Of a stretch of DNA of 64,000 nt, positions 4,989 through 43,300 are shown piece by piece. The translations under genes were made by a program, and so were the position numbers. The stretch is from Amphiscolops sp. MND2022. Its lineage: Eukaryota. The stretch lies in NCBI GenBank assembly GCA_964187785.1, contig OZ076409.1:3722001-3786000 (forward strand), written 5' to 3'. Below the pieces are notes generated by a model, which had not been told where the DNA came from, ran no database searches, and saw nothing but the letters and a program-made list of their open reading frames with translations. Every line of letters begins with the position of its first letter. Positions within the stretch are counted from its first letter, which is position 1.

Positions 4989-5149
4989 AGGTGAAGAAAA
5001 GTACCTAAATCAATTTAAACGAGTTTAAACGCTTTGCAGGAGCAAAAACCTAGCAAAAAAGAACCAGCCCAATTGTTGTGATAAACTAATTAAATAGCCT
5101 CGGCTGTTTAATAAGTCTTTTCAGATAAATTGTTAAAACGACCGTCAAG

Positions 5150-18892: not shown

Positions 18893-18910
18893 GTCCCTCT
18901 GTGGTCGCCA
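18893..18910 (-). promoter_or_regulatory. Primer-binding site, tRNA-Arg-like
   Basis: TGGCGACCACAGAGGGAC, 5 nt inside the LTR end. Confidence 0.7.
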
Positions 18911-18915
18911 TAAAA

Positions 18916-20283
18916 TGTTGTCTCCATGTAACGACAAGCTCTCACAATTGTCGTCATCTCGTCATAGAGAAGAAGGAACCTTTGACATGGGTATTTGCCC
19001 GGGACAGGCGCCCATAGACATAGGCCCATTTTGCTTCCTGGGTAAAAGTTGTCCCGTTAGGAGGGGGTCATCGTCTCTTAGGGAGCCCTCGTCAGCTTTA
19101 TCCAGTCGTTTATTGCTAACAGTAACGGGCACTTCGCTTTGTCTTCGGAACCACCGCTTAGTTAGCCTTTAAAAACATTCCGAAAGGAAGTATAAATGTA
19201 AACTTCGCCATTCAAGGTGACTTGGGGAATAATATCTAAAATGGCTAAGTAGCCATCAAATCACAACAAAATGCAACATTTTCGTCGATAACAATTATTT
19301 GGCAATGTCCGCATTCAGTTTGCAAGCTGGTGCACCACGGGCACAGCTTCACGAATTAGATGGAAAGACTCATCTTTACGGGTTTCGCTATTTAAGGTAG
19401 CAAACTGCTGAAATCAAGGTTAGCTCCTGTAAATGAGTCTCTTTTCAGAGGTTTTTGCAGTCTCTGGCGTCTGTTGTGGCGGCTGCTCTTATGTTTTTGC
19501 TCGTTCTTGCTCTTTGTTGTCGAAGTACATGCCAATTTTGTGGAAACAGCGAAAAGAGCAATCACATGCTCAGTGCCACGTCAAAGATCGAATTAGATTT
19601 TTTGACAAAATTCTGAACATGTCAAAGTTGCAATTTCGGCTGATTTCGCTGTACTAGAGGGTGCCGTTACGAACGAATTCCTACCTTCATGGAGACGAGA
19701 GAGCAACTTCTGTTCAGATAAACAGCAAAAAAGAATGTGAAGTTAGACGGTTTTACAATGTCCCCACACTTTATCACGCTTAACTGAATGCCTTTCAAAA
19801 GAAAACTTGTAGTTTTCAAGGTAACACAATATCTTAAAATGACCCATAAAAATCAAAACTCCAATTGTTTTTTTTAAAAACAATTCGAGATTTTTTGAAA
19901 CCTTTGTAAAATTTTCACTTAAAATCGTTCGATAGAAAACATATAGTTATCAACCGCAATTAATTGGTAAATGTTCAGGGCTTTTAAAAAACAATTCCGT
20001 GTTAGAAAAAAGCCTCATATTGTCAACAAAAAGTCGAAAAATCCAAACTGTTCCAATATATGTTTTTTATGCAGTTTAATCACAACTTTGGAGAAATTTT
20101 GAAAAGAAAGGAGTCTCAAAACCTTTAGAAACGAAAAATGAGCTATGTAGGATTTTTTGAAGGAAGAACTGCAGTCTTTTGCTCCAAAAACACTTCAGAA
20201 TGATCCCAATGAGTCCCAAAATAGGAAAATAGATTTTTTTTTCGTAAATTTTGTGAAACGTTTGAACCGCTTCGAAGGTTACA
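18916..20283 (-). repeat. Putative 5' LTR
   Basis: Direct repeat of 10867-12227, adjacent to the PBS. Confidence 0.7.
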
Positions 20284-22699: not shown

Positions 22700-23006
22700 A
22701 TCATTCTTACGACGAGAATTCTCACAAAAGCGGTGCCTTTATTGCCAGTTTCATACTGAATAGTTCCAGCATAGCGCGAGTGTCTCCGAATATTTTTTGT
22801 TTCGTGTCTGACATTTTCAAGACACGGTGAACTACATGTGTGGCGTGGCACCATCTCACTTTTAATTCCAAACTTTTGTTCAAGTGTAACGTCAAGCTAG
22901 CGACGCACATACCAGAACTGGGACAGTACTTAGGTAGCCTGGACAGGAGACCAAAGTCTTACAACATGCCTAAATACTAGTTTTTCGTCCCTAAGGGTCT
23001 CCTGGG

Positions 23007-25349
23007 TGTTACGACTATTGTTCGGTGTTGTTTTAGAACTAGTCGCAGTTCGTGACTTGACTGGGGTGGACGTTCCTGTTACGGAGATGTTTTCTTGGTC
23101 AGAATCAGAATCTTGTATGTTCGAACTAACTGTGCGTTTCTTGTTCGTTGGTGCTATTAACTTGAGCATTTCCTTTTGATTTTCGGCTAATATCTTTGTT
23201 AGATCAGTCATTATTTCTTTTCTCAGAGTTGTTTTCATTTCCTCCAAGTTTTCAAGCTCGAGTCTAGGATTTTTACTAGAACTAGGTATCAGGTTTTCAA
23301 TAGAGCCATTCTCATTCAGGGAAGCTTCAAAATCTCCTGACACTAACTCAGCTACAGCTTTCCTCTTCTGGCTTCTAGTTGTCATTTTGATAGAGAGAGA
23401 GAGAAGGTATCTTTGGAAAAATTGAATTCTTCAAAGATTTAAGTTTTCTTTTGAATACGTTGTAGTAACGGAACAAAACTGATTGTTACAAGGCAAGTCA
23501 AAATTGTAAACTTTACATGTATGTACTACATATTTATACTTTCCCAGCATCATTTGTTCCTCACCTAAAAATTCCTAGGTATCACAAAATCGGGTTTGTT
23601 CAACAAAAAGCGCTAATGATTCATATCATTTCAGTCCCGCGTCGTAAAATCAGGCATCAAAATTCCTAGTTGCGTCAGCGTTCCGTAAAATTTGTTGAAA
23701 TCATTTTTGTTCAGGCAACCCCATTTCCTGTTTAAAGCTCAAAATTGCGGTAAAATAAAAGTCTAGCTTGCATTTCCATCAGCGCAAGCACGCCGGCATG
23801 AACAATTAGTCAACTTCCAATTTGGGAAGCTGAGATTCGAAGCAACAGAATGACACTCAAAAATGGTGACGGAATGACGACGGAATAAATCAATTTGGAA
23901 GCGGAGGAAAAACATGGAAAATTGGTATAAAGGAACAAACGATGCTGAAACTATAATCTCAAATTCAAACATATGAATTACCTGCTAATGGTATGCTATA
24001 TCGTTTACATTGAACACAAATTAAGTCCAAACAGGACTTTAACGAGATACAACAAAGATGAGCGCAACATAATCGTAATAATAAACGGAAAGCAACTTCA
24101 ACACTTTGCACAATAATCATGAAATTTATCAAAACATAATCGAAGTCTGATCACTAGCCCGATTGTCATTATCATGAAATACAACTGTCACTACTGGCTT
24201 GGAGCCTATGAATTGGCGTTGACCTTACGTCCTACGTTAGGATTATCATTAATATATTTTGAATGCCGTAGTAAATCAAGTAGATTTGTTCCCTTAAAGG
24301 GGAACTAAATAAGGCGTAATGTCAACGTGTTTTAGTGATTTACCATGATGATACAAATCCAGAACATAAAATTACCATTGCAATTTTCTATCATTCTTCC
24401 TTACAGTACAGTTTTCCTTATGTAAAATCATAACTCTTAAATCTTTCAAATGCATCGATTTAAAAGGCTTCGTTTGGATTTCGTTTGAAGCAGTATTTTT
24501 CATTTGCAATTTTACAATTCGCTCCGTAGGTGCTACGTATTAAGATTATCTATAGCAGAACAGCGGAATACAATTTTACAATCCGCTCCGTAAGTGTTCC
24601 GTACGTATTGAGATTGCTCATAGCTTAGCTGTTGCATCAAGCGAAGAGAAAGAGGAGTGCGTAGGTGAATTCATTCTCTTTCTCTTATTCCAATTGGTGT
24701 TGCTAGGGGCAACCGAAATTGATTCTATTCGACTTAGCTAAGAATAGTTCTATCAATAGAGTGACGTTATCGGTCCGTAGAAGCAAAATTCCTAATATTA
24801 GCTCAGTAGATTGACGTTGCCATAGCGTTGTAAATATTTGCCTAAATCACTTGGCTGTGCTTTTAAGTGAATATTGACAACCACTTCATCTCTGGAAAAC
24901 AATTCCGCTCTATTATTTGTCTGTTCCTTTTCATTTTAGATTGTATGAATTCCGTTGGGATCTCGGAATTGAATTTTATTTTAATGTTTTCATTTTAGTG
25001 TGGACCAGTGGAAAGAATGATCCCAATTATAAATGTTCATTTTAGTGTTTAGATTAGTATGGCAGGAAATCAGAAGATCATACCGGAAATGAAAAATCTT
25101 ATCACGCGCAGGGGATATTTGACCGGATGTTTTAGCTAAAAATCATTTCTGAAAAGTGTTCCGTAACGTTTACGCTAGGTTTTGTATTTGGAAAATTATC
25201 TGCAATCGATTCAGCTGTACTGTAAGTAGAATTTAGATTAGTTTTAAAATTAGTTTAATAGAGTTTACCTCGGCCTTTTCCTCGACCTCTTCCAAAGCCG
25301 GGTATGCCGCTACAGCAGTAGAAATTACGACCGGGAGCGGGTCGTGACA
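23007..25349 (-). repeat. 3' LTR (2,343 bp)
   Basis: Near-identical to 37279-39621; preceded on the minus strand by the purine-rich AAGAGGGGCCC. Confidence 0.97.
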
Positions 25350-26160
25350 GGGCCCCTCTTGAACCAAGAGACAAGGGTAGAGCGTTGCAGTGCGGGATCT
25401 CTTTTCGGATAATGATTGGGGGGCGTCCGTTGTGTAGGCGCCTGCCGCGAGCAAGACCTCTGCCCTCCTTCATCTTGGCTATGAGTTTTTCTTCTTCTTC
25501 CATTTCGTGACTTTCCTTTTCTATTTGCGCCCATACAGCAGGACAAAATTCGGGTGGCCCACTTGGTTTGCTCGAGTTGCCTAATGTACAATTGCATTTT
25601 TCTTTTCCCTCCGTAGGGGGAACGTTTTCCTTTCTGCGGGGTAAGAATGGGGGTTGTCTGGGGCATTCCATTGCTTTCAGGCCACGGTCACGTCTGGCGG
25701 TTGCGGAGAACTGACGGTCTTCTAAATCTAAGTTGTATAGTGCGTCCAGATCAGCTAGCGGGGGTTCATTTAGGTCATTCAGCCTGACCGTATTCGGTAT
25801 TCTTTCATTTCCCAGCAAGGGAATTTTACCTTTCGGAGTGGACGCGGTTTCTGCCCGAGAGGACTGCTCCTTCGGGGAAGATGGTTCTTCGTAGTAGTCA
25901 TCTGTGTCCGAATTGGCTGCTGACAAGTTGAACGTGACTCGCCCGAACTTCTTTTTCTTTTTGGGGGTGGGCCCAAATTTCCTCGGGGAGACATCGGAAC
26001 CAAAAGAAGACTCTAAGTCTGCGTCACTCCCGCGGTAAACTTCGACTGAGGAGTCACTTAGAGTTCCTACCGTATTCAGTGGCAGCGTTTTCAGCGGAGT
26101 GCTCGTGCGATTATTTTCCTCATCAGAAGAGATGTCAATAACCAAGCTATATCCGTTCAT
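25255..26160 (-). CDS. Accessory sense ORF (301 aa), low-complexity with NLS-like and RG-rich segments, overlapping the 3' LTR
   Basis: Intact ATG-to-stop ORF with PKKKKKF and GRGRGKGRG; crosses the PPT and ends 95 nt inside the LTR. Confidence 0.7.
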   Translation of the reverse strand: MNGYSLVIDISSDEENNRTSTPLKTLPLNTVGTLSDSSVEVYRGSDADLESSFGSDVSPRKFGPTPKKKKKFGRVTFNLSAANSDTDDYYEEPSSPKEQSSRAETASTPKGKIPLLGNERIPNTVRLNDLNEPPLADLDALYNLDLEDRQFSATARRDRGLKAMECPRQPPFLPRRKENVPPTEGKEKCNCTLGNSSKPSGPPEFCPAVWAQIEKESHEMEEEEKLIAKMKEGRGLARGRRLHNGRPPIIIRKEIPHCNALPLSLGSRGALSRPAPGRNFYCCSGIPGFGRGRGKGRGKLY

Positions 26161-26751
26161 CTTGTTGAGAATTTCAGATTGTTTTATTTCAAGGATTTTC
26201 CTTGTTGGCGACGATTGTGCGTTAAGAAAATTGTGCTGGTCAAGCTTTATGAAGATTGGACGACAAATGACCGTTTCAAATTCTTTCTTACGTAATTTTT
26301 ATCGAAATTCTATTGGTCGGTTTTTCCGTTTTCGTTCCGGTGCGTCCCGAGTTAAGAAAAGAGATTTCTTTCATCTGCGCAGTGATTGGTTGAAACTCAT
26401 AGAAAATCTTCCAATTTTATCTTCTTTCTTCTTTCTGTTTAATGGCGCGATGACGTCATTGATTTTTCTCGAATGTTCTACGTTCATATTCCGTAATTTT
26501 CAAAATGCCATCTTTTCTTCAGAGCTCCTTGATGAATCTTTTATTCATCCGTATGCTTTTTGGAACGTTTTGTCCCGTCACTGCCGTAATGGGCTTTCAC
26601 TGAAGTTGAAGTTTAGATGATTTTTAATTACGTAGGGATGACGTTAATGATTTCTTTTAGGGTGTCAACTTTTACTCGACGTGATTTCTATTTTGTTGAT
26701 TTCTTTTCCCTTTTTAGATTTCGTTGGCATTCGCTATTGTCACTTTTGATC
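26161..26751. promoter_or_regulatory. Candidate bidirectional internal promoter
   Basis: Lies between two divergent genes; CCAAT/ATTGG at ~26255, 26312, 26385 and 26411; TGACGTCA at 26451-26458. Confidence 0.45.
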
Positions 26752-29700
26752 ATGAGTGAAAACGCTGTTCCTCTTGATGTCTCTGGTTTTCTCAGGGGCA
26801 TGAGACTAACTTCTGCTTCACTGAAGACGACGCTTATCCCTCGGAAACGGAAGTTATAGTTACATCTTCAGGTTGGTAAAAATCTTTCTGACTTCTTGGG
26901 TAGTAGGACTATTTTTGTTTTGGTGATCAGCCTTTTATAGTCTTACCCGTAACTCTGACGCGTCTGAACCAGATCTTGATTTTCAGTAACTCAACCTGGA
27001 ACTTCCTTGGCTGTTGTTTCCGCTACCACTACGGGTGGGACATCTGCTAACCCCGTGGGGTTATCTTCGCTGGGTTCTTCTTCGAAGCTGCCTCCAGTGA
27101 CTTCAGTGCTGGTTCCTGAGCAGTCCATCAATGATGCTTTGACATCGTTGCTTCCCGCTTGTCCTACTACTGAGTCTTCAGTTGTTGCGGGCATTGATGT
27201 TTCCTCTGCCGTTCCTCCTGATTTGTCCGAGGTAGTTCCGGGCATTGATGTTTCCTCTGCCGTTCCTCCTGATTTGTCCGAGGTAGTTCCGGGCGATTTT
27301 GATGTCAGTGTGGAGCCTCATGAAGGTGAGGCTGCTACCACCTCCACAGGAGAAGAAAGAGCTGTAGAAGAGGAGGATACGCCAGTCTGTAAGTTGTGTG
27401 ATTGGTTTCTTTTGTTGTTGTTGTTGTTTTTTTTGTTTTTTTTGTCAACTTGTTGGTTTCTGTTTTCCATTTCTTATCACTCTTGTGTTGTAGGTTCGAA
27501 AGTGTTTCCATTCCGGAAGACGAGCGTGAAGTTCATGGAATCGTCTCCGAAATTGAAAAGGACAACACGGGTCGCAGATGTTGATGCTACCTTGAGTGGT
27601 TGGAGTGGGGCAGAAGACGTATCATTCTCGGCAACTCCCGTGTCACCCGAGATGATGCAGCTGGGTCGTCAGTTGGCTTCGACGGTAGAGGAGCGTACTG
27701 CTCGGCAGATACAGACAGGTGAGTTGTTTATTTGTGATTGGCCTCTGGTTGGAATGGTGTGTGGTACGTTGCAGCGACGTTTGTTTTGGGTGTTACATTT
27801 GTTTGATTGGTTTTGTGCGTGTTATAGGCTTCAGCGAGCTTGTTGAGAAAGTGGAGAGTCACTTTGAGCGCCCGAAGGCGAAGAAATATAGCAGTCGGAA
27901 GTTGTTGCACCGTCGGATGCTAGCGCTGAATCCATTGTTTGCTGATTTCGTGACGGGTTCGGAGTGTGGAAGTGCAAAGGTCTTCTATTGTCGCATTTGT
28001 AGAAGAGACGTAAAGATGGGTTCAAAAGGGTCAGCTGAGTTTGCTCGTCACTTTGAGTCAAAGAAGCACTGGGAGCAGGACGTCACATATCGTGTGCACA
28101 TGGGTCTCCCTGTGTACAACAAGCTAATGGAGCCCATGGAGCTGAGTGCCCGTCAGAAGGACGACTTCCTTTCGCGGCCCTTCGTGGATTTGGGCGGGGA
28201 GTTTCCTTTCCCTGAGGACATGTTGCCCAAACATTCGAAGGCTTCTTCGAAAGTGCCACTGATGACTCTCGTTTCAAGCTTGAGTGATGTGTTGCGCAGT
28301 GGCGGGGATTTCACGTTGGTTCGTCGTCTGTGGGGCTACTTCCTTGCGTCTCTGGGCGGTCGGGATCCAGAATTCTCTCTACAGTGGAGTCGCTCAGAGA
28401 CTGTGGTTAGTATTTTGTGTGTTTGGTACATTTAGTGGGTGGTGTTCTGTTATGTGGTGTTTGCTCCTTTTATTGTAAGCCGCTAGGTGACCGTAAAGAT
28501 ATACTGTTGTGTGATTTCGCTCTCCGTTGTGGTTTATTTTCTCTTCCTTCTTCTTGTCATTTGGGTGTTTGTTTCAGTCCGTGTTGTGTCAAGGCCTTGT
28601 TCCCCGAGTGCTGCGCGTGATGTTCAAGAACATTGGGCAATTTCGGGAGTATTCTCTGCAGTACGAAAAGGATACGGAGGTAGAACGTTGTTTCGTTCTC
28701 TTCTGGGAAGACAACTATTTGAAGAAGGTATGTGTCGGTTGTGAGTCGCTGCTGCAGCGTGTGCCAAAACCAGAGTTGCTGCCCTTGGCACGAGTCGTCT
28801 GTAGTTTACCGTCTGGGAAGTTGCCTTTGGCTATAGTTGGCGGAAGTCCGTCCTTAGTCCGTGTCTTGAGTGACACTCGCGCTGACAGTCGTGTCTTTGT
28901 GTCTTACCAGCCCTTCACTAGTGAGATGTTGATTCGCTGTATTCGGCAAGCCTATCAGGACGTGTTCAGTATGATGGAGGTGACTTCTCTGGTGGATTAT
29001 ACTGTGTTACGTTTGAAAACTGCCATTTACGAGGACTGGATGGAGGAGAGAGCCATACTGTGTAAAAGTGTTCGTCAGGGCCACGTGGAATTCGCTGATT
29101 TGCGGGAAGTACTGTCAGATCTGATAGAGCTATGGCCTTCAATACGTCCATTTGTTCGATGTACTGGTAACCCTGAGGCTAAGGACAAAGCTGAACGGGT
29201 GAGTGAAAATTGTTCCTTCCGTCCGGTGTAGTTGCGGTGTTACTTTTTGTCAAATCAGGTTGTGTATTTTAGCTACAGGGGATTGATTGGTTACTAACTG
29301 CCAATAATATGATAACTTATCGGTTCAGTCTGCTGAAAGTGATTCTTGATACTTGTGAGTGTTTTCTTTTGAGTTGATAGATTGTTTTTTGACTGTTGTT
29401 GACTGCGTATTTGTTCGTATTAGTGGCTGTTCTTTCCTGTCTTCCTCTTTTGTGTATTGGGGTAGGGTTGTTCTTCTGTTGTATACAAATCATGGTGTAT
29501 GTTTTAGTTTACAACAATTGCCCCAGATTTCGACAGGATCAGGCGGATTATGCTTTCCGCGCTTATGGCGAGTTTTGCAATTTTGTGTATTGCCTGCTCT
29601 TGAAAACTCGCAGCACCAGTGGTCTTCCTGAAATTCATGCTTGGGAGTGTTACATGGATGCCGTGAAGGTCCGGGATTTCGCTGTTGTTCCGTGTGATTC

Positions 29701-30808
29701 TTTCCTCTCTAATCATGACTTGGGGCAACAGTTATCCGCAGGCAAGACGAAAGAGTATGTGGCTTTCCGACTTCATTGTCGTCAGTTCGTTGATCGTCTG
29801 ATCATCATTTTACTGGAAAGCACATATGCACGTTCTATTATTGCCAAGGGGATGTGTAGTTTCTGCACCGAGTTGATGCTGGAAGGCGATGATGTGGCCG
29901 TTTTCAGTCTATTTGCGGATTTGTGCCGTATTCTTGTATCCTGTGGTTCGCTGAGTGTGGACGAAAGTAGTGCAGCTTTGGAGGAACATGCAAGTTTCAT
30001 TGTGGAAAAACGTGGGTATCATTCTTCGTCAGGGCAGTCTGCTGGTGACATCGTGAATGTGGTGCCGTACCTGCTCCGTGATGTAGGGTTCTTGTCACGA
30101 CCACATTTGCTCCGGGTATTCAAGTTGTGTTGTCTTGTCGCGGGAGTGTCTGTCGCACGCTATCCTGCCGTGTCTCTGGATTTATCTGGTTTTGCATTGA
30201 GTGTTGCAGACTTTCAGAGCTGTGTGCAACTGGTGCAGTCTTATATATTGAGCGAAGGGTATTCGCATCAATCCTTCTTCAGTGATCAGACTCTTATAGT
30301 TGTGAAGAAGGCCATCGCAGATGCTGGTAGATTCTTTGGAGCGTCTGACTTCAGTATGTGGACAGATTTTTGCAGGGAGGATGTAGATGCCTTTGTTGTG
30401 AAGTATAGTGCCTTATTTACTACTTTCCTCGCAGAGCGCCGGAAAAGCTTCGATGCCCGTTATGTGGAGTACAACAATGCAAATCGGATGTCCCGGCTAT
30501 CGGATAGTGGCGATACAGCTGGTTCGAGTGGTTCCTTGAGTTCTGTGATCCAGCGGAAGAGGCAAGATACAGGTCCTCCAAGTGTTGTTTCTATGAAATC
30601 TGGTGGCAGTAAGTCAAGTAATGGCGGAACGAAGTCGGAGTCTAAGTCTGCTACTATTTCGTTTAAAAGGAAGCAGCAGAAAAACGTCGGTGGTGATTCG
30701 GGTGGTGGAGCTGGTTCGTCTAAAGGAAGAAAGAAAGTTGTACGAGAAGCTGATGATGATGGTTCTGGTAGTCAGCCGAAGTCTAAGAAAGTGTCCAAAA
30801 ACTGTTGA
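26752..30808 (+). CDS. Antisense multi-exon gene (~1,100 aa): BED-like zinc finger plus degenerate hAT-transposase-like body
   Basis: Exons (start uncertain)-26871, 26987-27388, 27494-27718, 27828-28405, 28578-29198, 29273-29354, 29508-30808. All six introns are GT-AG and phase-compatible. Contains FYCRICRRDVKMGSKGSAEFARHFESKKH. Confidence 0.82.
27190..27293 (+). repeat. 51-bp in-frame tandem duplication (GIDVSSAVPPDLSEVVP x2)
   Basis: Exact direct repeat within exon 2. Confidence 0.9.
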
Positions 30809-30962
30809 TGATTTAGTTTCATTTGGGTTTTGATGTAGTTATATTTTCTTTTTATTGTCTGCTGATCTTTGTTGTATTAGTTTTTGGGTATGTAGTTTTA
30901 GAGAGTCTTGAGAAAAATTGACGTAGCCATTCCGGTTCGGTTTGGTTTGTTGAGTTTTTTAG

Positions 30963-33900
30963 CTAGTCTTGAGTTGGACGTGAGTCCTCCGTAGTAACTG
31001 AGTCAAGCATTCGAAAATCAGGATTGACATTGGGTTTCGGATTAGGTCGCAAGTTGTATCTTCCCACTTTTCTAGGGTTATATCCAACGACGATAGGCGG
31101 CAATTCGGGTGTTTTGGGAGGGCTGTGTATCGGTGGTGGGGTCAAAATATATGGGTTATCGCTGACATCTAGGTCAAATGACGTTATATTGTCGGAAGGT
31201 GTTTTATCTTCTGCAGTATTTTCATTTGTGGATGTTTGAGCCACGTCGTTTTCCGTTGTAGGTGCGTCTGTGGTTATTTTAACCACGTCATTTTCCACTA
31301 TACTTTCTTTGGTGGTTGTTTTAACCACATCATTTTCCGTTGTACTTTCGTCGTTTCCTGCTATGTCTTCGATTTCTGTAAGTGTAGCTTCTTTGGCGGC
31401 GTTTTCCGTATTGTTTCCGAACAGAACTTCTCCGAATTCGGTTTCCCAAGCTTGCGCGTACCAATCATTGTGGGTTGTTTTAACCTCTGGGTCTGGAAGG
31501 TAATCTTCCCTTCTGACTGTTACGTCAGGTACTCGCTGATTGGGCGCATATAGCCTTAGGCGAATTCTGTGGAGGGTTTGAGTATACCTAGTTCCCGTGC
31601 GGCGTACGACGTAGTTGTTGTTCGAGAGTACTTTGACTACTATGTAGGGTCCAGTCCAGATGCAATCTTTAAAGGCAAATTTCATTGACTGGTTGTCTGC
31701 CTTCGGATTAAGGACGTAGCAGTAGTCGTTGACTTTGAGTGGCGTTGCTGTTGCTTTCTTGTCATAGTACTGTTTGTACTTTAAGTAGGACTGCATTAGA
31801 TTTTCTTTGGCGGCATGGTGTATTTCGGATATTTGCTTCTGTAGTTTATCCGTCAGTTCTTCGTTGTTATCTTTTTTCCATTCAGGTTTCAATCCGAGTT
31901 TTATGTCTAGGATGTTGTACGGAATGCGTCCGTGAAATACTGTTGTAGGTTCACAACCTAGGCTTTCATGATAGCTCGTATTGTAGTTCATGACCGCGAT
32001 CTGGACATATTTATGCCACATAGAGCGTCGTTCTCCCGTTGATATCTTTAGGGAGGTTTTCAAAGAGGCATGAGTCCTTTCTAGGATGCCAATTGTTTGA
32101 GCGTGTTTCGTCGATGCGTGGCTTATCCGTATATCCAATGTTTGTGTTATTTGATTGACTACTTCTGACCTGAATTGTGATCCTTTATCTGTTAGAATGA
32201 CGGTCGGCAGGTAGCAGTGTCGTGTCATGACGTCTATTATGCATCGTGCGACTGTTTTGGCTGTCATGTCCTGTGTCGGGTAAGCGAAAAGGTAACGTGA
32301 AAAAACATCCATCATCGTTATGATGTGTTGGTATCCATTTGAGGAAGGTAGGTTTGGTAGAATGTCTACTTCTAGGCAGTCTTCTGGTCCCATTGTGAAT
32401 TCAGTGTTGCTTAGCATTTTGGGGCGTATTTGTCTTGTGTCAATTCTTTTATTGGCAATGCAGTCTTGACAGCTGGTTACCCAAGCTCTGATTTTACGTG
32501 CAAGACCCGGGAAGTAGTATTTCGCTCTGCATTCTTGTATCATTTTTGCGATTCCTGGATGTTTATTTGTTTTCCCATGTAGAGTGGCCAAGAGTTCTGG
32601 GACTAGGTGTTTCGGAATTATAATTTGATTATGGGTGACTGATCCGTCTTCTCCGTAGTATTTCCGCATCAGAACTCCATCTTTCATTATGATTCTTTCT
32701 TCATGGCGTAATAGGTTTCGTCCTCGTGGTTCAGTTTTGAGAAGGTGTTTGTCATATTCTTCATGTGAGATCCGTTGTTTCAGTGCTTTGAGGAGAGGGT
32801 CTGCATCTTGTTCGTTTCTGATCCGTGCATTTTCTTTGATTGCGCCGAAGGAGTAGACTGCGGAGTTGAGTGGTATCTTGATGACTTCGGTTACTTTTGT
32901 TGATAGTTCTCTCTCATGTTCGTCTAGGGCGCGTTGTTTGCTGAGTGCTTTTCGGGCAAAGATTTCTTGTTCAGATTCATCTTCTTCATCAGGTAGGAAG
33001 AAAAGTTGTTCTTCGTCAGCTACATCTGATGATTGTAGATTGACCTCAATTGGGGACGTTAGGATGTCGTCTCGTAGTTTAAGTTGTACCTTTTCTTTCG
33101 GTGTGAGTTCGAGTCTTGAAAGAAAACCTGCTGCTGTGTTTTGGGAGCCTGCTACGTGCATGATTCGAAACTTGAACTGTAATACATAGTCACAGGCATT
33201 CCAGAGTGCAGGGGGTGTCGTTTTGGTCTGGAAGAATCTCGTTACTGAGCGGTTGTCTGTTAAGACTAGGGTTGGAATTGTTGCTTCCCATAGTATGTGA
33301 CTGTATTCGAGGAATGCATGATAGATTGCTAAGAATTCCTTGCAGTAGATAGACATTTTCAGTTGTGCAGGTGAAAAAACTCGTGATCCGAACGCTACTG
33401 GTGCGAAGGTTTTTCGTTTGGAGAATATTTTGCGTTCATCGTTCTCCTCAATCATGAAGGCGTAGCCTGACGCACGAAAGCTTGCATCCGTCATTAGGAC
33501 GTATTGTTTTCCTGCTATGGGCTGTCGGAGCGCAAGTCCACAAGCTTCCGCTAAACTGGCGTTAATTTCCTTAAAGTTATCGACAAGTTCTTCTGATATT
33601 CTGATCTTGGAGTCTGCTTTAAGAAGTTCGTACATGCCAAGCTTTTCTGACAAGCGCGGTATGTAGTTGCGGTAATAGTTAACAAAGCCAATGTACTTTT
33701 GAACTTGTTTTTTGGATTTGGGGAAGAGTACTTTGGAGAGGAAATTTTTGACTTTTTGATCTTGCGGGGCTACTCCGTCGGGGGTGATGATTCGGCCAAG
33801 AAATTCGATTTGGGTTACTCCAAAATGGCATTTTTCGATGGTTAGTTTTAGTCCTGCTTTCCTAATGCATTTGAAGACTGCTCCGATGTTTTTTATGAGC

Positions 33901-36251
33901 TGTTCCGTTGTGTTTGCAGCAATGCCAATGTCATCTACGTATTGTGCACATTGATCGGCTTTGATGACTGAGTCCAGATACTCACGCATGAAGCTCGAAA
34001 AGGCTGATAGGGCTCTGCTTAGTCCTTGTGCCAGACGGCGATAGGCGAACGTCCTACTAGCAAAATTAAAAGCAAGTAACTCTACTGACCTTTGGTCTGC
34101 CATTTGAAGGCAGTGATACGCCTGGGAGCAGTCGAGTTTGCAGAATAGTTTTTTCCCTGCTAGGTGTTGTGCCGCATCTGAGAGGGTGCTGACAGGGTGG
34201 TTGTTGTTGATGTAGTCATCTGCTATGAGTGCGTTGATTTTGCGCAGATCCACCAGTAGTCTCAGTTTGCCGTTGGGTTTCCGTTGTGCAAATATAGGAC
34301 TGGCGTACTTGGAGAAGGGGAGTGTCGTGATGATGCCGTATTTGTGCATCAGTGCCAGTTCCAGTGTTAGGTCTTCTTTGAGGTTGATCGGGACGGATAA
34401 GCTCTGTGTGTAGACTGGTTTGTCGTCCTGTGGTGTTAGGCTGACTTTGAACTGTGTATTCATCCCGATATCTAGTCGGTGTCGAGCAAAGATGTCATTG
34501 AATTCAACAATGGTGTCCTCAAGTTTTTCACGGTCTTTGCCCGTAATTAGTGAGTCTGTCCATTTGAACATTGATAGAAATTTGTTGCGAGAGTCTTCGT
34601 TTTCGGTTGGGTCAAGTTTTTCTAATTCGGCAAGGTCCCGCAGTTCTTTCAGGATTCGCTTTTGTATGGGCGAATGTTCTTGTTCGTTGCCTGGGTGTTC
34701 TGGGGTCGGGAACCAGAATTTTTCTTCATTGTCTTCTGGCCGTTCTACTTGCATTAGTGCGTTGATGTACGTGACCACATCGTCATGGTCATTGAGGAGA
34801 TTCAGGGCGGCAATGTCAACTGGGCGGATCATCTTCGTTTCTTCGGGTTTCAGGATTTGCAGTTCGGCCATTTTGGTGTCGTTGGCTATTGTGTATGGAA
34901 AATCCGTGGTGTTGGCGATTTTAATTGGGAGCTTTTTATCTCTAGCTGTTGTAATCGCTGGGGCTACTATTACTTTCGCGCATTCATCGAATTGTGGTAG
35001 GGGTTGTATTGTGCCCGTTATTGGGTGCTCAATACTCACAGGGATTGTTGCGTAGATGACTCGGGTAGAGTGCGCTGGGATTGTATGCTTGGCTTCGGTC
35101 TTTATCGTGATGGGTTTGGGATTGCACTTTTGTCTTTCGTCTGTGAGCGCCATCGTGATTTGGATCTTGGGAAAGTTGATGGTTCCCTGTGCCGTGTCAA
35201 GGATTGCGGCATGCTTTCGTAGAAACGCTAATCCAATTATGGGGAATGACGTTTGATTCATGATGATGAATGTTTCTTCAAAAGTGTAATCTCCTATTTT
35301 GAAGCGTAGAGTGTACGTGGCAAGTGGTTGTTCTAGTTCGGCATTGGCGTATTGCACTTTGAAAGGGGGTGGAGGTGCTTTGTTAACAATGCATTGACTC
35401 GCCTTTTGGTGGAGTTTTTCAGTATCCCTTTCGCTAATAGCATTAATGTACGCACCTGAGTCGACTAAGGCTTCGATTTTGACAGTATTGAATTCGATTG
35501 GTAAGAAGAGCATTCTCTTTTTCTTCTTGAGGGCAATTGCAGACATTAACGGGATGTAGTCGTCTTCCTTGTCGTGCTGGATGAATTCTTTGATGACATC
35601 TAGATCTTCTGGTAGTGTTGGATGACATTCCGTTATTTCTTCGTCTTCAGCGGCTATTGCTGTGGCTGGCGCGGTTGGTGGTGATGACGAGAGTGAAGCG
35701 GTGTTTTCTCGCTGTTCTCTTGCTTGTCGTGACCATATTGTTTTGTCTTCAATGCATATGATGTTTTCGGCATCGATCGGTGTGGACGTGACGGTGACGG
35801 GTGCTGTTGGGGACGGTGTTGTTCTTTTCAGGATCGGTGACGGCGGTGACGGTAGGTTTGTGGTCTTCGTGGTTTGAGCTTGAGGGTTTGAGACTTGGAT
35901 TTTGAAGGATAGTTTATTTGTATCATAGATGGTTGGTTCATCCCAAGGGTCATATCTGTAGTCTCTGTCATATATATAAATTCGGTCTGTTTTTGATTCC
36001 GGTAGCGGTCTTTTGAGTGTCGCATAGTTATCGGGCGATTCTGTTATCCACTGGGGTAGTGGCGTTGGATCTTCTGGGTGTCTGGCGTTATGCCTGAGTA
36101 TCATGCCTACGTTCCAGCGGCGTTGCCAGTCTTGAGTTGGTTCTTCATTACATTCAGTTAAAAAATCTTCTTCATACCTGTTTGGGGGGTCCTCTATCGT
36201 GTACGCCCTCGCGTCTACTTTTTCCCCAAATCGTAGGCGCGGCGACTTTAG
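30963..36251 (-). CDS. pol: Gypsy Pol (protease, dUTPase-like linker, RT, RNase H, integrase)
   Basis: ALVDSGA, LLVDLRKIN, QYVDD, MTDAS, H..HPG...C..C, TDKGSQF, WTGPY. The frame is open upstream to the gag stop, in the -1 frame. Confidence 0.95.
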   Translation of the reverse strand, partial: LKSPRLRFGEKVDARAYTIEDPPNRYEEDFLTECNEEPTQDWQRRWNVGMILRHNARHPEDPTPLPQWITESPDNYATLKRPLPESKTDRIYIYDRDYRYDPWDEPTIYDTNKLSFKIQVSNPQAQTTKTTNLPSPPSPILKRTTPSPTAPVTVTSTPIDAENIICIEDKTIWSRQAREQRENTASLSSSPPTAPATAIAAEDEEITECHPTLPEDLDVIKEFIQHDKEDDYIPLMSAIALKKKKRMLFLPIEFNTVKIEALVDSGAYINAISERDTEKLHQKASQCIVNKAPPPPFKVQYANAELEQPLATYTLRFKIGDYTFEETFIIMNQTSFPIIGLAFLRKHAAILDTAQGTINFPKIQITMALTDERQKCNPKPITIKTEAKHTIPAHSTRVIYATIPVSIEHPITGTIQPLPQFDECAKVIVAPAITTARDKKLPIKIANTTDFPYTIANDTKMAELQILKPEETKMIRPVDIAALNLLNDHDDVVTYINALMQVERPEDNEEKFWFPTPEHPGNEQEHSPIQKRILKELRDLAELEKLDPTENEDSRNKFLSMFKWTDSLITGKDREKLEDTIVEFNDIFARHRLDIGMNTQFKVSLTPQDDKPVYTQSLSVPINLKEDLTLELALMHKYGIITTLPFSKYASPIFAQRKPNGKLRLLVDLRKINALIADDYINNNHPVSTLSDAAQHLAGKKLFCKLDCSQAYHCLQMADQRSVELLAFNFASRTFAYRRLAQGLSRALSAFSSFMREYLDSVIKADQCAQYVDDIGIAANTTEQLIKNIGAVFKCIRKAGLKLTIEKCHFGVTQIEFLGRIITPDGVAPQDQKVKNFLSKVLFPKSKKQVQKYIGFVNYYRNYIPRLSEKLGMYELLKADSKIRISEELVDNFKEINASLAEACGLALRQPIAGKQYVLMTDASFRASGYAFMIEENDERKIFSKRKTFAPVAFGSRVFSPAQLKMSIYCKEFLAIYHAFLEYSHILWEATIPTLVLTDNRSVTRFFQTKTTPPALWNACDYVLQFKFRIMHVAGSQNTAAGFLSRLELTPKEKVQLKLRDDILTSPIEVNLQSSDVADEEQLFFLPDEEDESEQEIFARKALSKQRALDEHERELSTKVTEVIKIPLNSAVYSFGAIKENARIRNEQDADPLLKALKQRISHEEYDKHLLKTEPRGRNLLRHEERIIMKDGVLMRKYYGEDGSVTHNQIIIPKHLVPELLATLHGKTNKHPGIAKMIQECRAKYYFPGLARKIRAWVTSCQDCIANKRIDTRQIRPKMLSNTEFTMGPEDCLEVDILPNLPSSNGYQHIITMMDVFSRYLFAYPTQDMTAKTVARCIIDVMTRHCYLPTVILTDKGSQFRSEVVNQITQTLDIRISHASTKHAQTIGILERTHASLKTSLKISTGERRSMWHKYVQIAVMNYNTSYHESLGCEPTTVFHGRIPYNILDIKLGLKPEWKKDNNEELTDKLQKQISEIHHAAKENLMQSYLKYKQYYDKKATATPLKVNDYCYVLNPKADNQSMKFAFKDCIWTGPYIVVKVLSNNNYVVRRTGTRYTQTLHRIRLRLYAPNQRVPDVTVRREDYLPDPEVKTTHNDWYAQAWETEFGEVLFGNNTENAAKEATLTEIEDIAGNDESTTENDVVKTTTKESIVENDVVKITTDAPTTENDVAQTSTNENTAEDKTPSDNITSFDLDVSDNPYILTPPPIHSPPKTPELPPIVVGYNPRKVGRYNLRPNPKPNVNPDFRMLDSVTTEDSRPTQD

Positions 36252-37657
36252 TTTTTTGGCTGAGAGGACGTGGTAGGTACAGGTTGTTCACTGATTTTGT
36301 TGGTTGGGATGGTGAATTCTCGTTTCTTCTTTCTGGGGTCATTTGCTGCGTTGGCTCCGTTCCAACAATTCTCAGTTTTGTGCATCTTGCCACATGTATC
36401 ACACTTGGGTTTGGGTACTTCGTTTTGGGCTGGGTCTTTTGTGTTTGTTTTGGCTGTATTATAACGTTCTCGTTGAAGTTTGCGACACTGTGCCTTGTAG
36501 AGGCCATATTTGCCACAGTGAAAACAATGGCCTCGTTGTTGTTGGTCTTTTTTATGGTCCGTCACTACAGCGTCCACTGTGTTGAGTGGGACTAGGGTTG
36601 TTTCATCGGGCGCACCTAGTCCGTTTAATCTCATTTCCCTCTCAAGATGTAAAACTATGTCATTGTAGGGTTTATCTTCCAAATATGCTCTGTTGAGGAT
36701 CTTTTTGACGTGATCCGGCATTTTGGCGTAGATTGCTTTATCAATGAATTTTTGTGCTTCTGAGCCGAATGCTTCCTTTGCAGTTTTTTGCAGGGTGTCA
36801 AGGAACTCATGGAGTTTTTGTTTAGTGGGGTCAAAATGCAGGGCGTCCCACTCACATCTCGCTTTAGCGGATGATTATAAATCACCAAAGCGGCGTTTAA
36901 ATGCCGTTATGACTTCTTCTAGGTTGTCTTTTTTGGTGTCATCTAGATTACAATACGCTTGTAGTGCGTTTCCTCGTAGGAGTGAATGGAAGTAGTTGAT
37001 CTTTTGTATCTCGGTTAGGTGAGGATACATTTTGATATTGTTTCGGAATAGGTCCTCAAAAAGTTCAAACTTTTCGGACTTACCATCGAAAACTGGGAGC
37101 GAAGCAGTGAGTGCTTTCGGCATCGGAAGTAGATTGGTTGATGGGAATGTCTGTGGTTGTGGTGCGAACAGTATCTTTGACGTGGATGGTCGGTCTTTTG
37201 GTTGTTCGCTAAGTATACGTTGTGCTTTTGGTCGTTTGGTGGGTTGGTTAGTGGAATCATTGAGGACTCCTGTCACCATGTTACGACTATTGTTCGGTGT
37301 TGTTTTAGAACTAGTCGCAGTTCGTGACTTGACTGGGGTGGACGTTCCTGTTACGGAGATGTTTTCTTGGTCAGAATCAGAATCTTGTATGTTCGAACTA
37401 ACTGTGCGTTTCTTGTTCGTTGGTGCTATTAACTTGAGCATTTCCTTTTGATTTTCGGCTAATATCTTTGTTAGATCAGTCATTATTTCTTTTCTCAGAG
37501 TTGTTTTCATTTCCTCCAAGTTTTCAAGCTCGAGTCTAGGATTTTTACTAGAACTAGGTATCAGGTTTTCAATAGAGCCATTCTCATTCAGGGAAGCTTC
37601 AAAATCTCCTGACACTAACTCAGCTACAGCTTTCCTCTTCTGGCTTCTAGTTGTCAT
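36248..37657 (-). CDS. gag: Gypsy Gag with one in-frame TAA (36875-36877)
   Basis: ORFs 36875-37657 and 36248-36721 share a frame with a single stop between them; LPVFDGK motif; knuckles CFHCGKYGLYKAQC and CDTCGKMHKTENC. Confidence 0.88.
37261..37278 (-). promoter_or_regulatory. Primer-binding site (tRNA-Leu-like)
   Basis: TGGTGACAGGAGT directly after the LTR's terminal CA. Confidence 0.75.
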
Positions 37658-39621
37658 TTTGATAGAGAGAGAGAGAAGGTATCTTTGGAAAAGTTGAATT
37701 CTTCAAAAATTTAAGTTTTCTTTTGAATACGTTGTAGTAACGGAACAAAACTGATTGTTACAAGGCAAGTCAAAATTGTAAACTTTACATGTATGTACTA
37801 CATATTTATACTTTCCCAGCATCATTTGTTCCTCACCTAAAAATTCCTAGGTATCACAAAATCGGGTTTGTTCAACAAAAAGCGCTAATGATTCATATCA
37901 TTTCAGTCCCGCGTCGTAAAATCAGGCATCAAAATTCCTAGTTGCGTCAGCGTTCCGTAAAATTTGTTGAAATCATTTTTGTTCAGGCAATCCCATTTCC
38001 TGTTTAAATCTCAAAATTGCGGTAAAATAAAAGTCTAGCTTGCATTTCCATCAGCGCAAGCACGCCGGCATGAACAATTAGTCAACTTCCAATTTGGGAA
38101 GCTGAGATTCGAAGCAACAGAATGACACTCAAAAATGGTGACGGAATGACGACGGAATAAATCAATTTGGAAGCGGAGGAAAAACATGGAAAATTGGTAT
38201 AAAGGAACAAACGATGCTGAAACTATAATCTCAAATTCAAACATATGAATTACCTGCTAATGGTATGCTATATCGTTTACATTGAACACAAATTAAGTCC
38301 AAACGGGACTTTAACGAGATACAACAAAGATGAGCGCAACATATTCGTAATAATAAACGGAAAGCAACTTCAACACTTTGCACAATAATCATGAAATTTA
38401 TCAAAACATAATCGAAGTCTGATCACTAGCCCGATTGTCATTATCATGAAATACAACTGTCACTACTGGCTTGGAGCCTATGAATTGGCGTTGACCTTAC
38501 GTCCTACGTTAGGATTATCATTAATATATTTTGAATGCCGTAGTAAATCAAGTAGATTTGTTCCCTTAAAGAGGAACTAAATAAGGCGTAATGTCAACGT
38601 GTTTTAGTGATTTACCATGATGATACAAATCCAGAACATAAAATTACCATTGCAATTTTCTATCATTCTTCCTTACAGTACAGTTTTCCTTATGTAAAAT
38701 CATAACTCTTAAATCTTTCAAATGCATCGATTTAAAAGGCTTCGTTTGGATTTCGTTTGAAGCAGTATTTTTCATTTGCAATTTTACAATTCGCTCCGTA
38801 GGTGCTACGTATTAAGATTATCTATAGCAGAACAGCGGAATACAATTTTACAATCCGCTCCGTAAGTGTTCCGTACGTATTGAGATTGCTCATAGCTTAG
38901 CTGTTGCATCAAGCGAAGAGAAAGAGGAGTGCGTAGGTGAATTCATTCTCTTTCTCTTATTCCAATTGGTGTTGCTAGGGGCAACCGAAATTGATTCTAT
39001 TCGACTTAGCTAAGAATAGTTCTATCAATAGAGTGACGTTATCGGTCCGTAGAAGCAAAATTCCTAATATTAGCTCAGTAGATTGACGTTGCCATAGCGT
39101 TGTAAATATTTGCCTAAATCACTTGGCTGTGCTTTTAAGTGAATATTGACAACCACTTCATCTCTGGAAAACAATTCCGCTCTATTATTTGTCTGTTCCT
39201 TTTCATTTTAGATTGTATGAATTCCGTTGGGATCTCGGAATTGAATTTTATTTTAATGTTTTCATTTTAGTGTGGACCAGTGGAAAGAATGATCCCAATT
39301 ATAAATGTTCATTTTAGTGTTTAGATTAGTATGGCAGGAAATCAGAAGATCATACCGGAAATGAAAAATCTTATCACGCGCAGGGGATATTTGACCGGAA
39401 GTTTTAGCTAAAAATCATTTCTGAAAAGTGTTCCGTAACGTTTACGCTAGGTTTTGTATTTGGAAAATTATCTGCAATCGATTCAGCTGTACTGTAAGTA
39501 GAATTTAGATTAGTTTTAAAATTAGTTTAATAGAGTTTACCTCGGCCTTGTCCTCGACCTCTTCCAAAGCCGGGTATGCCGCTACAGCAGTAGAAATTAC
39601 GACCGGGAGCGGGTCGTGACA
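37279..39621 (-). repeat. 5' LTR (2,343 bp), containing the gag start codon
   Basis: Near-identical to 23007-25349. Confidence 0.97.
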
Positions 39622-40332
39622 CTGGGAACTTTTCCAAGACGCCGTGGAGTCTCCTCATATTAGAGCTCCGTGGCGACGTGCCGGCACACTCCAAGTCCGG
39701 ACACATCCCACAAGCACGTAAAAACAGTCCTGAAAGCTTCCTGCGGTCCTACATACTCCCGAGGTCCGAAAACAGGGGTTTAGGCAGAGCACATCTCAAT
39801 TAAGTAAATAACGTCTAAAATCAACACCTTCCAGTTTTACCATTAACAAACACCTGAAAATCTGCCAAAATACTATAAAACAGCACTGGGGAGGCATTCT
39901 GAACAGTTCCTAGCGAGTTTTGAGCTTTGGGTTCAACTCACGCAAAAATCGCACCTTCTTCTTCATCTCTTTTCCGGCTCATTCTTGCGATTTTCCGGTT
40001 TTGATGGCACAACACTGGGGTATTGGCTAGTTTCTGCTTCTGAATATCTTCTTTCGCTGCTTTTCGGTCTTCTCTGTGGTCTGGGGGGGTCTTTTTGCGT
40101 TGTGTGTGCTTCCTTTTCGATTTCAACGACCTGCTAGGTCGGCCATTTTGATTCGCACACTTTTTGGGTATTCTTCGAATTTTTGAAATTTTTGACCTTG
40201 ACTGGTGGACGTTACAAAGTAAAACTTAAAATTTTAGAAGTTCTTAGAAAGCACAAATTATGCAAAGTTAGGTAGACATTTTTGCCAATCATGCATTTCT
40301 TACAAACTTTGTTCTGAAATCACAAACATTGC

Positions 40333-43300
40333 TTTCAGTTTGTTCATTCATGAATCATTTCATTCATTGAATTCTTTTTTTTTGGTTTTCGGCGCTTGAT
40401 CAAATTGTGAAATAGTTGACTCTTCATGATTGAATTACCGCGTTAAAGTTGATTTACTGAACCTTGAATTGGAATGTAACTGAAATCTGCAATCAATCGA
40501 AAGTGATCAACAATTTACATTTTGCAGAAAAAGAAAATGAGTTCGCAACAGTTAAAAAAGGGCTCCTAACCTCTTAGGTTATGGGCCCAGGCGACGCTTC
40601 CGCGAAAAGAGAAAGTGTCCTCGGCCTTATAAGCAAAAAGGACAACAAAGAAATTTGAAGAAAAAAAACGATAGAAGTTTGAAAGAAATTGCCGAAGAAA
40701 GCATTGTAATTGAAAAACTTTAGCAAAAACAAGGAACACTTCATTGAACTGTGGACAAACTTGGCAACTGGTATTTTCATTTGAACAAACCCTGTTTCAA
40801 AAAAACCCATAAATTTTGAGTGTTTGTGGTAAAATGGACATTTAAATTCGAGTAAAAAAAGTAAAAAAATGACCTAAGGTTTTCATTGTTCGGGAGCGCC
40901 AATTTCATTTATTGATTCCGACAGTCTCCCACAAAATCTAACGTTGATTTCTGTATTTAAAAAAATCACTACTGAGAGCGAAGCAAACCTGTTCTTGATG
41001 ATGGCGAGTGTTGTGACAAAACTGGAAAGCTTGAAATTTTAAGGTAAAGATGAAGATTTTGTCCTGTTCAGTGAACAATTTGAAGCCCGTATGTACCTGT
41101 TGAAGCTGCGTGGTGTGCTATTAGGAACCGAAACCGAGGAAGACTTTTTACAAAAAGACAAGCCTAACGCTTCACGAGAGCATCGTGAGGAAGCCCGTGT
41201 TAAGGCAGCAAAAGTTTCTGAGGAGAAAAAGTATCATGTATGGTGTGAGTTGGTGCAGTGTTTGGATGCAAAATATGTGTTGTTCCTCCGTAGTCAAAAA
41301 AGAGATGGTCCAGCCGCGTGGGGTAAATTGTGTGAAAGGTTTAGGAGTTACGAGCGTCCTCGTTTGCAACACTTGATAGAAAAATTAACGTCACATAGAA
41401 AAGAAAGTTCGGAAACTGTCATTGAAGATAATACTCGAGCAGAAGACCTTTAGTACAACTTGAAACAAATTGGGGAAGCAGTGTCGGAACAAATGTTCAT
41501 CTCCATTCTTCTGAAAGGTTTGCCGAAAGAGTACAAAACATTTGTAACCATGGCTAAATTTAGCAAAGACAGAAAAGATTTGGAGGAAATTAAAAGAGAT
41601 CTCGTGAACTTTGAGTTTGACCTTAAAAACACAACCAAGGAGGAAAATACGTTTTTCGCAAGAGCACCAGTGAAGTGCTATGTTTGTGGTACTTTTGGTC
41701 ATAAACAAGCAGACTGTAGGTTCAAAAAGGAAAACAGATCAGATCAACAGAAAACATTCAAGTGTCACAGGTGCGGAAAAACGGGACATTTTGCCAATGA
41801 ATGTAAAGACGGTGAAAAAGCTGTTTTGAAGTATTGTAATAACTGCAAGAGAAAAGGGCATGACATAACAGAATGCTTCAAACAAGGAGGAAAAGCATAC
41901 AAAGGGAAGGAAAAGACAAATTATTCAGAAATAGAAACAGTTGAAGAGTTTTCATTCTTCTCGACCGAAATGAACATGAATAACAGTAACAGTGATTTAG
42001 TAAGTGATAGGGGATGTACCAACTACACGATAAAAGACAGAAACCAATTCGTAGAGTTTGAAGAATGGGAAGTTGTTGTGTCGTGTGCAAACAATAGTGA
42101 GTCAAATATCGAGGAAAAGGAACAGCTGTCTTCGATGTAAAGGATGTTCTTGGGACATTGAAACGTATTGAGTTCAAAAATGTCTTGTATGTGCCGGAGT
42201 ATGAGAGAAATTTAAAATCGGTGGCAAAACTCAAACAAGCAGGGGTACAAGTGAAGTTTGGCACTGAAAATATTATTGAAACCAAGAATGGAACTAAGTT
42301 CAACATGGAGGAAAGAGAAAACTTGTTTGTCTGGCGTGTGAAAGCGTGTGATGATGTGTCTGCTGGTGAGTGTGGAACCAATCGGGTTGAGGAAATTGCT
42401 CTCAGTTCTAAGTTGAGTATCTGGCACCGTCGATTAGGGCATAATAATGATCTCTCAAAACTCTGTGAGCATGTTGATGGTATGAGTGTGAGTGTTGATG
42501 ATTCTGGATTGCGTGAGTGATGTGAATTGAACAAACAAAAACGTAGAGCAATTCCCAGAGATTGTGGGACAAGAGCACAGGACATTCTTGAGTATGTGCA
42601 CGCGGACATTTTAGGTCCAGTTGCTCCCGTTTCTGTGGATGGTCACCGCTATGCCATTGGCTTTGTTGACAGTTGCTCTCGTTATTGTAAAGTTTACTTC
42701 ATGAAAAGCAGAGAGGAGACTTTGGAAAAAGTCCAACAGTTTTGTGCAGACGTGGGCAAGCCTCGTGTACTAGTAACTGATGGTGCGTTCGAATTCGTAA
42801 GTAAAGAGATCAAGTCATGGTACAGAACAAAGGGAATAAGAACGGAACTCTCAGCTCCATATACACCAGAGGAGAATGGAAAAATAGAGAGGACATGGGG
42901 GACTGTGGTCGGTTTTGCACGTTGCATGATACATGATGCAGGGTTGAGCAAGGAAGACTGGACTTATGCGCTCAATTACGCATTTCAATTGAAAAATGTG
43001 TGTCTGCATTCCGCTATCAACAAAACTCCATATAAAGTGATGTACAAAATGAAATCTAACGTGAATTTTTTGAAGGTGTTCGGTTGCAAAGTCTACGCAT
43101 TCATTGAAAAACAATTCCGCACAAAGTTTGACAGTACAGCTCGTGAAGGAGTTTTTCTCGGATTCAGTGACAACAGCAAAACGTATATTATCGGCATTGA
43201 TAAAGGAGATGGTACACTCAAGACAATCAAAACAAGGAGTGCCAAGTTTGACGAGGAAGTATACTTTGCGAAACCAAGCTCGGAACAAAAGCAAAGTGAT

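Follow-up and report, generated by a model that had tools for sequence, protein, structure and literature searches.

A Ty3/Gypsy element with a predicted seven-exon antisense gene

We analysed a window of 64,000 nucleotides from Amphiscolops sp. MND2022 (contig OZ076409.1, positions 3,722,001 to 3,786,000), in which a 16,615-bp Ty3/Gypsy retrotransposon lies on the minus strand at 23007-39621 and carries, behind pol, a single-exon sense open reading frame (ORF3) and a predicted seven-exon antisense gene. Its two 2,343-bp long terminal repeats (LTRs; 5′ LTR, 37279-39621; 3′ LTR, 23007-25349; both minus strand) have TG...CA ends and differ by exactly 9 substitutions and 0 indels (0.38%), and the pentamer CTGGG stands on both sides as a target-site duplication (TSD; 23002-23006 and 39622-39626), in agreement with the about nine differences and the perfect TSD reported in a first-pass annotation of the sequence. 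When joined, the flanks form one repeat, of which an uninterrupted (empty) paralog is found at 9259-9561. Because the LTRs diverge by only 0.38%, the insertion is recent. Assignment to Ty3/Gypsy is based on the LTR pair, the 5-bp TSD, the order protease-reverse transcriptase (RT)-RNase H-integrase, a tRNA primer-binding site (PBS) and a short polypurine tract (PPT). The element had also been called giant, a term for which PMC6431247 asks for internal lengths >20 kb, of which 16,615 bp falls short. Accessory genes had further been proposed for the ~5.6 kb between the pol stop (30963) and the 3′ LTR, and this region is indeed present but holds two genes only, ORF3 and the antisense gene.

The antisense gene, which reads along the plus strand and is predicted to encode a protein of ~1,110 amino acids, is in our view very probably a real, expressed gene. 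Exon 1 (26752-26871) starts with an ATG at 26752 and is frameshifted in this copy, while the joined exons 2-7 give 1,069 codons whose sole stop is terminal. Exon 2 (26987-27388) is rich in S/T/P and acidic residues, evolves fast and contains a 51-bp tandem duplication (27184-27294). It is followed by exon 3 (27494-27718) and by exon 4 (27828-28405), in which a CxxC-x16-H-x5-H zinc finger (27989-28069) keeps its four residues in 56/56, 55/56, 54/56 and 52/56 sequences, respectively. Exon 5 (28578-29198) is predicted to form an RNase-H-like beta-beta-beta-alpha-beta-alpha core without conserved catalytic acids, and exon 6 (29273-29354) precedes exon 7 (29508-30808; stop 30806-30808), which encodes a helical region and a basic low-complexity tail.

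Across 21 aligned copies, the GT-AG sites are kept although the introns diverge. All 21 copies have canonical donors 1, 4 and 5 and a canonical acceptor 5; the count is 20/21 for acceptors 4 and 6 and for donor 3, 20/20 for acceptor 2 (one deletion), 19/19 for donor 6 and 18/19 for acceptor 7; donor 2 (12/21) and acceptor 3 (18/21) are both poorly aligned. We therefore rejected the reading of the plus-strand open frames as several genes, since they join as exons with conserved splice sites. Intron 6 is precisely absent in two copies, L005 and L013, which suggests the existence of a spliced antisense mRNA that is occasionally copied.

ORF3 and the antisense gene are divergent neighbours in head-to-head arrangement, with starts at a distance of 590 bp; the spacer between them (26161-26751) has conserved ATTGG at 26312 and 26385 and TGACGTCA at 26451, which we take to be CCAAT and cAMP response element (CRE) motifs, respectively. 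This arrangement suggests an internal promoter, and the spacer is likely to serve both genes as a bidirectional one. A TATAAA in intron 1 was also considered as an ORF3 promoter and is present in 11/21 rows only. Intron 1 (26872-26986) is the most conserved segment of the cassette, with a mean column identity of 0.87 compared with 0.48-0.75 in the exons (0.52-0.75 when only the core of exon 7 is counted) and 0.35-0.66 in the other introns. It contains the palindrome GACGCGTC (26957-26964), a candidate binding site that is exact in 18/22 loci of the window clade and is kept in a distant clade described below (8/8 loci, 7 exact), whereas two intermediate loci and 177 kb of control sequence lack it.

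Retention, selection and exchange of the antisense gene

A first look at the genome returned 21,929 candidate matches for RT, 3,555 for integrase DNA, 5,408 for exon 5 of the antisense gene and 636 for window-type antisense DNA, which are not copy numbers. Among the best 40 pol matches, 19 coincided with antisense DNA matches and 20 of the other 21 were fetched; 38 of the 39 copies examined carry the antisense gene, 19 of the window type (window copy included) and 19 of a diverged type with 48-56% protein identity. The first-pass annotation had named sister copies that share LTR and pol but lack the accessory region as what would refute its reading; the refutation failed, and the accessory region is a trait of the family. 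One copy, L001 (G000:C6:57003537-57013536), is without the antisense gene and most of ORF3, by a deletion that corresponds to window 25556-31102 and has a 10-nt microhomology. LTR pairs were resolved for nine of ten sisters and differ by 0-8 substitutions, with a perfect 5-bp TSD in eight and a tandem arrangement in one, which bears out the proposal of a recently active lineage. The tandem sisters L021 and L022 (G000:C1:94125442-94153514) have one LTR in common, with a PBS after the middle LTR and internal regions 14,271 bp apart.

Both extra genes are under purifying selection according to their ratios of nonsynonymous to synonymous substitution (dN/dS, Nei-Gojobori), in support of the earlier view of them as accessory genes. 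Antisense exons 4, 5 and 7 gave 0.05-0.18 in the three pairs of the window copy at dS <0.3 (with L035, L038 and L076), and ORF3 gave 0.16-0.19 in four pairs with this copy at dS <0.3 and 0.15-0.23 in most pairs; integrase gave 0.03-0.10 against this copy. The near-identical pair L080/L081 showed values of 0.3-0.9, as expected for changes after insertion.

Lineages swap the antisense gene as a cassette. In L005, identity to the window copy is 94-98% over 23600-26600, 32-65% over 26600-30800 and 91-99% from 31100, with 99% in integrase, 97% in ORF3 and saturation in the antisense exons. In trees built from within-genome sequences only, integrase and ORF3 agree in their deepest split, which parts 6 from 13 rows with full support and which the exon 5 tree lacks. 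Among 18 hand-picked copies, whose pairs are not independent, integrase, ORF3 and unique 3′ (U3) distances correlate with one another at 0.39-0.75, whereas exon 5 distances correlate with none of them (rho -0.05 with integrase, -0.06 with ORF3, -0.02 to -0.08 with U3 segments); the antisense gene is therefore independent of a matching LTR, ORF3 or integrase type. A Tax-like co-evolution of the antisense protein with the variable U3 was rejected because no such distance correlation exists. The hypervariable U3 block, itself exchangeable, lies at window 23864-24534 (LTR positions about 800-1500), and 8 of 20 pol-picked sisters have a different version of it together with a different ORF3 type. 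A special ORF3-U3 co-segregation was also set aside, since it could not be told apart from linkage and two copies, L076 and L090, depart from it.

Profile searches with exon 4 retrieved 448 relatives at E <=0.001, with no assigned protein name where this was checked. One protein from the European Nucleotide Archive, P0190 (890 amino acids), is equivalent to exons 4-7 without introns and has a large clade of relatives in G000. All eight near-intronless homologs whose context was read lie antisense after pol in Gypsy elements (RT 76-80%, integrase 35-56% identical), as do both intermediate homologs, and RT identity across all ten is 76-88%. Seven of the eight distant-clade elements have LTR pairs (up to 2.1 kb, 98-99.9%), and in each of the four that were checked the PBS is that of the window copy and ORF3 runs into the 3′ LTR; in three of these, gag begins 114 codons within the LTR. 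The whole layout is thus old and still active. The best G000 matches of P0190 and of P0188 are 47-53% and 32-39% identical, respectively, and given this low identity other genomes probably also hold members of the antisense gene family.

Sense genes, defects of this copy and neighbouring repeats

All sense genes are on the minus strand. The gag gene (36248-37657; 469 codons in sisters; DUF1759 match) starts with an ATG (37657) that lies within the 5′ LTR, the last 379 nt of which encode gag codons 1-126, and its frame reads through the PBS. At the other end of the element, ORF3 (25255-26160, 301 amino acids) contains the PPT and extends 95 nt into the 3′ LTR, and coding sequence therefore overlaps both LTRs as originally noted. 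The PBS (37266-37278) is a 13-nt complement of the tRNA-Leu(CAG) 3′ end, and one of four genomic loci matching its pattern was called tRNA-Leu by ARAGORN; the PPT is weak, a short purine tract adjoining the 3′ LTR (25350-25360), and the only TATAAA of the 5′ LTR is at LTR position 1812. A large tandem array at about 35.59-35.65 Mb of G000:C8, with a unit of about 296 bp, ends like the primer tRNA-Leu, an ending with 817 matches genome-wide and 0 for the reversed control.

Within the 40-nt overlap of gag and pol lies A-AAA-AAC (36251-36257), a predicted -1 frameshift site whose heptamer we take to be of the slippery type. Pol (30963-36287) has the Gypsy domain order by Pfam, and about 250 codons ahead of its protease (35523-36287) matched no Pfam family. 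It had been described as intact, which is true of its single open frame of 1,774 codons and not of its last RNase H acidic motif, which is altered. In gag, the first zinc knuckle is altered and codon 261 is a stop (36875-36877) where 8/9 resolved sisters are open. With this stop and the frameshift in antisense exon 1, this copy is non-autonomous. ORF3 is S/P-rich with a basic cluster and an RG-rich end; it looks disordered and may bind RNA. As in the earlier annotation, no env-like frame was found, with no Pfam match and a hydropathy over 19 residues that peaks at 0.52 for ORF3 and at 1.68 for exon 7 of the antisense gene. The element is accordingly not one of the env-carrying, errantivirus-like Gypsy elements, in which a sense third ORF has a signal peptide or transmembrane segment.

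Elsewhere in the window, two diverged LINE-like elements (RT, Pfam RVT_1) face each other at 391-9063 and are 68% identical over 4 kb. At 10885-20275, a 1.34-kb direct repeat pair (97.7% identical) stands 8 kb apart and encloses a single 249-codon frame without Pfam match (open frames of at least 150 codons considered), possibly a non-autonomous LTR element. The interval 40333-45169 is taken up by a Copia element (245-bp LTRs, 98.8%), and 48634-54609 by a decayed small-LTR Gypsy element.

Probable origin of the antisense protein from a hAT transposase

We consider it probable that the antisense gene descends from a catalytically dead hAT transposase, an idea that was formed before the fold and language-model tests. 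The structural model of exon 5 consists of a helix, three strands, a helix, a short strand and a helix, and a Foldseek search with it placed Hermes at ranks 1-4 of 350,542 chains (best E 7.4e-3, probability 0.85). In the ESM Atlas, the matches of exon 4 included zf-C2H2_12, FAM200B-like and GTF2IRD2 clusters at 0.89-0.90, and 9 of the 10 best family hits were concordant. The order and spacing of strands and helices in exon 5 also agree by eye with hAT cores of the same genome. The protein is not a member of the hAT family as an enzyme: at the positions assigned by eye to the DDE triad, residues are variable (E20/Q12/R10 of about 50 rows) or mostly glycine (G34/D4/N3), and judged from this alignment the triad is not conserved.

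Several results weigh against this origin. The Hermes matches (E 7e-3 to 6e-2) come from a poor exon 5 model, with a predicted local distance difference test score (pLDDT) of 43.6, and superpose at a root-mean-square deviation of 14 Å, and two runs of VIA-align did not list Hermes. Comparisons by hhalign and hmmsearch with six Ac-type hAT transposases of the same genome were negative, Pfam gave no hAT support, with Dimer_Tnp_hAT (PF05699) unmatched in any member, and PDB sequence searches with the antisense protein returned nothing. For exon 7 (model pLDDT 50) a fold search yielded nothing under E 0.9, no longer homologs were present among 7,989 candidates, and the Atlas gave helical-repeat leads only, below 0.9. 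These negatives, which comprise every sequence-profile test and both VIA runs, together with an intron-rich structure like that of a host gene, are what would be expected of a real accessory gene that was captured as a host zinc-finger gene or has an orphan fold, the Hermes match then being due to chance. We regard this as the most serious competitor, although a clearly less probable one, since two independent methods lead from two different exons to hAT in the expected domain order, and all ten distant homologs whose context was read sit in Gypsy elements, none of them host-like.

A decaying hAT passenger inserted into the ancestral element may well describe the origin, as the opposite orientation and the introns form the pattern of a nested insertion, but as a present-day state it is refuted by the dN/dS of 0.05-0.18 and opposed by the conserved splice sites, the retention across RT 79% divergence and the lack of flanking inverted repeats (none of at least 30 nt in 23007-39621, shorter ones not being searched), leaving it a negligible chance.

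Proposed function and alternatives

Our overall reading, to which we give a probability of roughly 0.5, is that of a young non-autonomous Gypsy copy whose exchanged antisense gene, likely a former hAT transposase, encodes a likely nuclear, DNA-binding helper against silencing. A hAT element would once have inserted in reverse behind pol, and its gene would have been kept while catalysis and ends were lost. ORF3 and the antisense gene would be read from the internal head-to-head promoter, and because the gene is antisense its introns would stay in genomic RNA and be copied along. Template switching in co-packaged RNAs could then swap the cassette at about 26600 and 30900, and occasional copying of spliced antisense mRNA could produce the precise intron loss. 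The protein would retain the zinc finger and the DNA-binding/dimer part of the transposase and bind a site in its own cassette, for which GACGCGTC in intron 1 is the candidate, so that the cassette could move freely between backbones, and it would keep the element transcribed against host silencing.

The zinc finger, the basic tail and the transposase scaffold suggest a nuclear, DNA-binding protein, and free exchange and fast divergence would fit a host-facing, self-contained module by analogy with VANC (PMC5735166). The regulatory function that the first-pass annotation gave to the accessory proteins is putative. A helper role at the DNA level is put forward tentatively, at slightly less than even odds, and ranked above RNA export, an integration cofactor and a brake. 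The most specific version, in which a dead hAT transposase and its own intron-1 palindrome form a self-contained anti-silencing cassette that is traded among thousands of Gypsy copies in an arms race with the host, is speculative and rather unlikely as a whole.

The conservation of intron 1 could instead reflect a Rev/CERV-like role in which the protein binds this element in sense genomic RNA and exports or packages it. The finger leans weakly to RNA-binding C2H2 types in Pfam (zf-met, zf-C2H2_jaz, SF3a60; E 0.07-0.97), and an animal Gypsy element offers a precedent in CERV, an accessory protein that is essential and comes from a spliced mRNA (PMC10309623). However, intron 1 has a weak consensus RNA fold (-10.15 kcal/mol, two-sided change in 1/23 pairs) and no Rfam match; moreover, a hAT ancestry would favour DNA binding, and RNA binding is more to be expected of ORF3, given its RG-rich end. 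An RNA role of the antisense protein thus appears unlikely.

Transposases bind element ends and target DNA, and a dead one might act as an integration cofactor, on complementary DNA ends or on integrase, by steering or shielding the pre-integration complex; any cassette type could serve the LTR termini, PBS and integrase, given how well these are conserved. We hold this to be somewhat less plausible still, because cassettes only 48-62% identical occur in elements with 91-99% identical integrase, with no co-variation, and the eight TSDs share no common target sequence. The gene is convergent with pol and overlaps the genomic RNA, and double-stranded RNA could form; the protein or its antisense RNA might accordingly act as a brake that dampens the element and lowers host cost, as HBZ is thought to, and dual roles have been proposed for plant antisense ORFs (PMC7264820). 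Such a brake is improbable, as element-level selection has kept the gene in 38/39 copies and a pure brake would be expected to be lost through deletion mutants. The DNA-level helper remains our preferred role.

Comparison with known systems

In HIV, nef lies over the PPT and U3, and in HTLV-1, HBZ is an antisense gene. The nef-like and HBZ-like comparison of the first-pass annotation survives as one of position, with a sense ORF over the PPT and the start of the 3′ LTR and a spliced antisense gene, and receives no support from sequence or fold; here env is absent, and the antisense promoter is apparently internal, unlike the antisense LTR promoter of complex retroviruses (PMC7264820).

A closer precedent is provided by the Retand/Tat Ty3/Gypsy elements of plants, whose antisense TRP28 ORFs (Transposase_28, PF04195), for example maize Grande gene23 and that of rice RIRE2, are stated to be of unknown origin and without similarity to other transposable elements (PMC11963269, PMC7264820). 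An internal promoter of its own and a nuclear location are described for Grande gene23 (PMC11963269, PMC7264820). Shared features are the long region from pol to the 3′ LTR (2.9-6.6 kb there, 5.6 kb here), a family-wide antisense gene and a proposed DNA-binding regulator. In contrast, the antisense protein here had no PF04195 match at E<=1, the plant genes are described as ORFs and not as six-intron genes, and a hAT origin is indicated here; cassette exchange and intron loss do not appear in the available plant accounts. Our element also has the extra sense ORF3 and a gag start in the LTR.

With hAT transposases, both active (Hermes, PDB 8sjd/8edg/4d1q) and dead (FAM200, GTF2IRD2, ZBED5), the protein shares an N-terminal zinc finger, followed in order by a helical part, a predicted RNase-H-like core and a helical region, at similar length, but here conserved DDE residues, a Dimer_Tnp_hAT match and inverted repeats are missing, and the keeper is a retrotransposon. 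The VANC anti-silencing proteins of Arabidopsis VANDAL transposons (PMC5735166) are likewise fast-diverging accessory proteins and may serve as a model for the proposed function, although they are unrelated proteins of plant DNA transposons that target co-evolving tandem repeats. CERV of C. elegans Cer1 is a nuclear accessory protein made from a spliced mRNA of an animal Gypsy-type element; it acts in RNA export and is not described there as antisense or transposase-like (PMC10309623). Modular accessory genes shared between element types are also known from rotifer LTR elements with common ORF3 enzymes (PMC5408684) and from the plant mobile domain (PMD) in Gypsy and Mutator-like elements (MULE; PMC5418596), where, as far as described, the cargo is an esterase, exonuclease, env or PMD with no transposase core, and PMD flow was from host to MULE.

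Antisense extra genes in LTR retrotransposons are thus already known, mainly from plants, with origin and function stated to be open (PMC7264820, PMC11963269). A literature search that fell short of most subscription journals and Repbase found no paper on a hAT-derived antisense gene in an LTR element. What is new here is the spliced seven-exon form, the likely hAT origin, the cassette exchange, the intron loss and the conserved palindrome. In this case the origin can be traced, likely to a class II transposase that a class I element has tamed. The gene, spliced and ancient, belongs to a family for which candidate copies number in the thousands, and it occurs as many alleles that can be exchanged between almost identical backbones; this allele variety offers natural comparisons of what the accessory gene does and how one transposon family dominates a 1-Gb genome.

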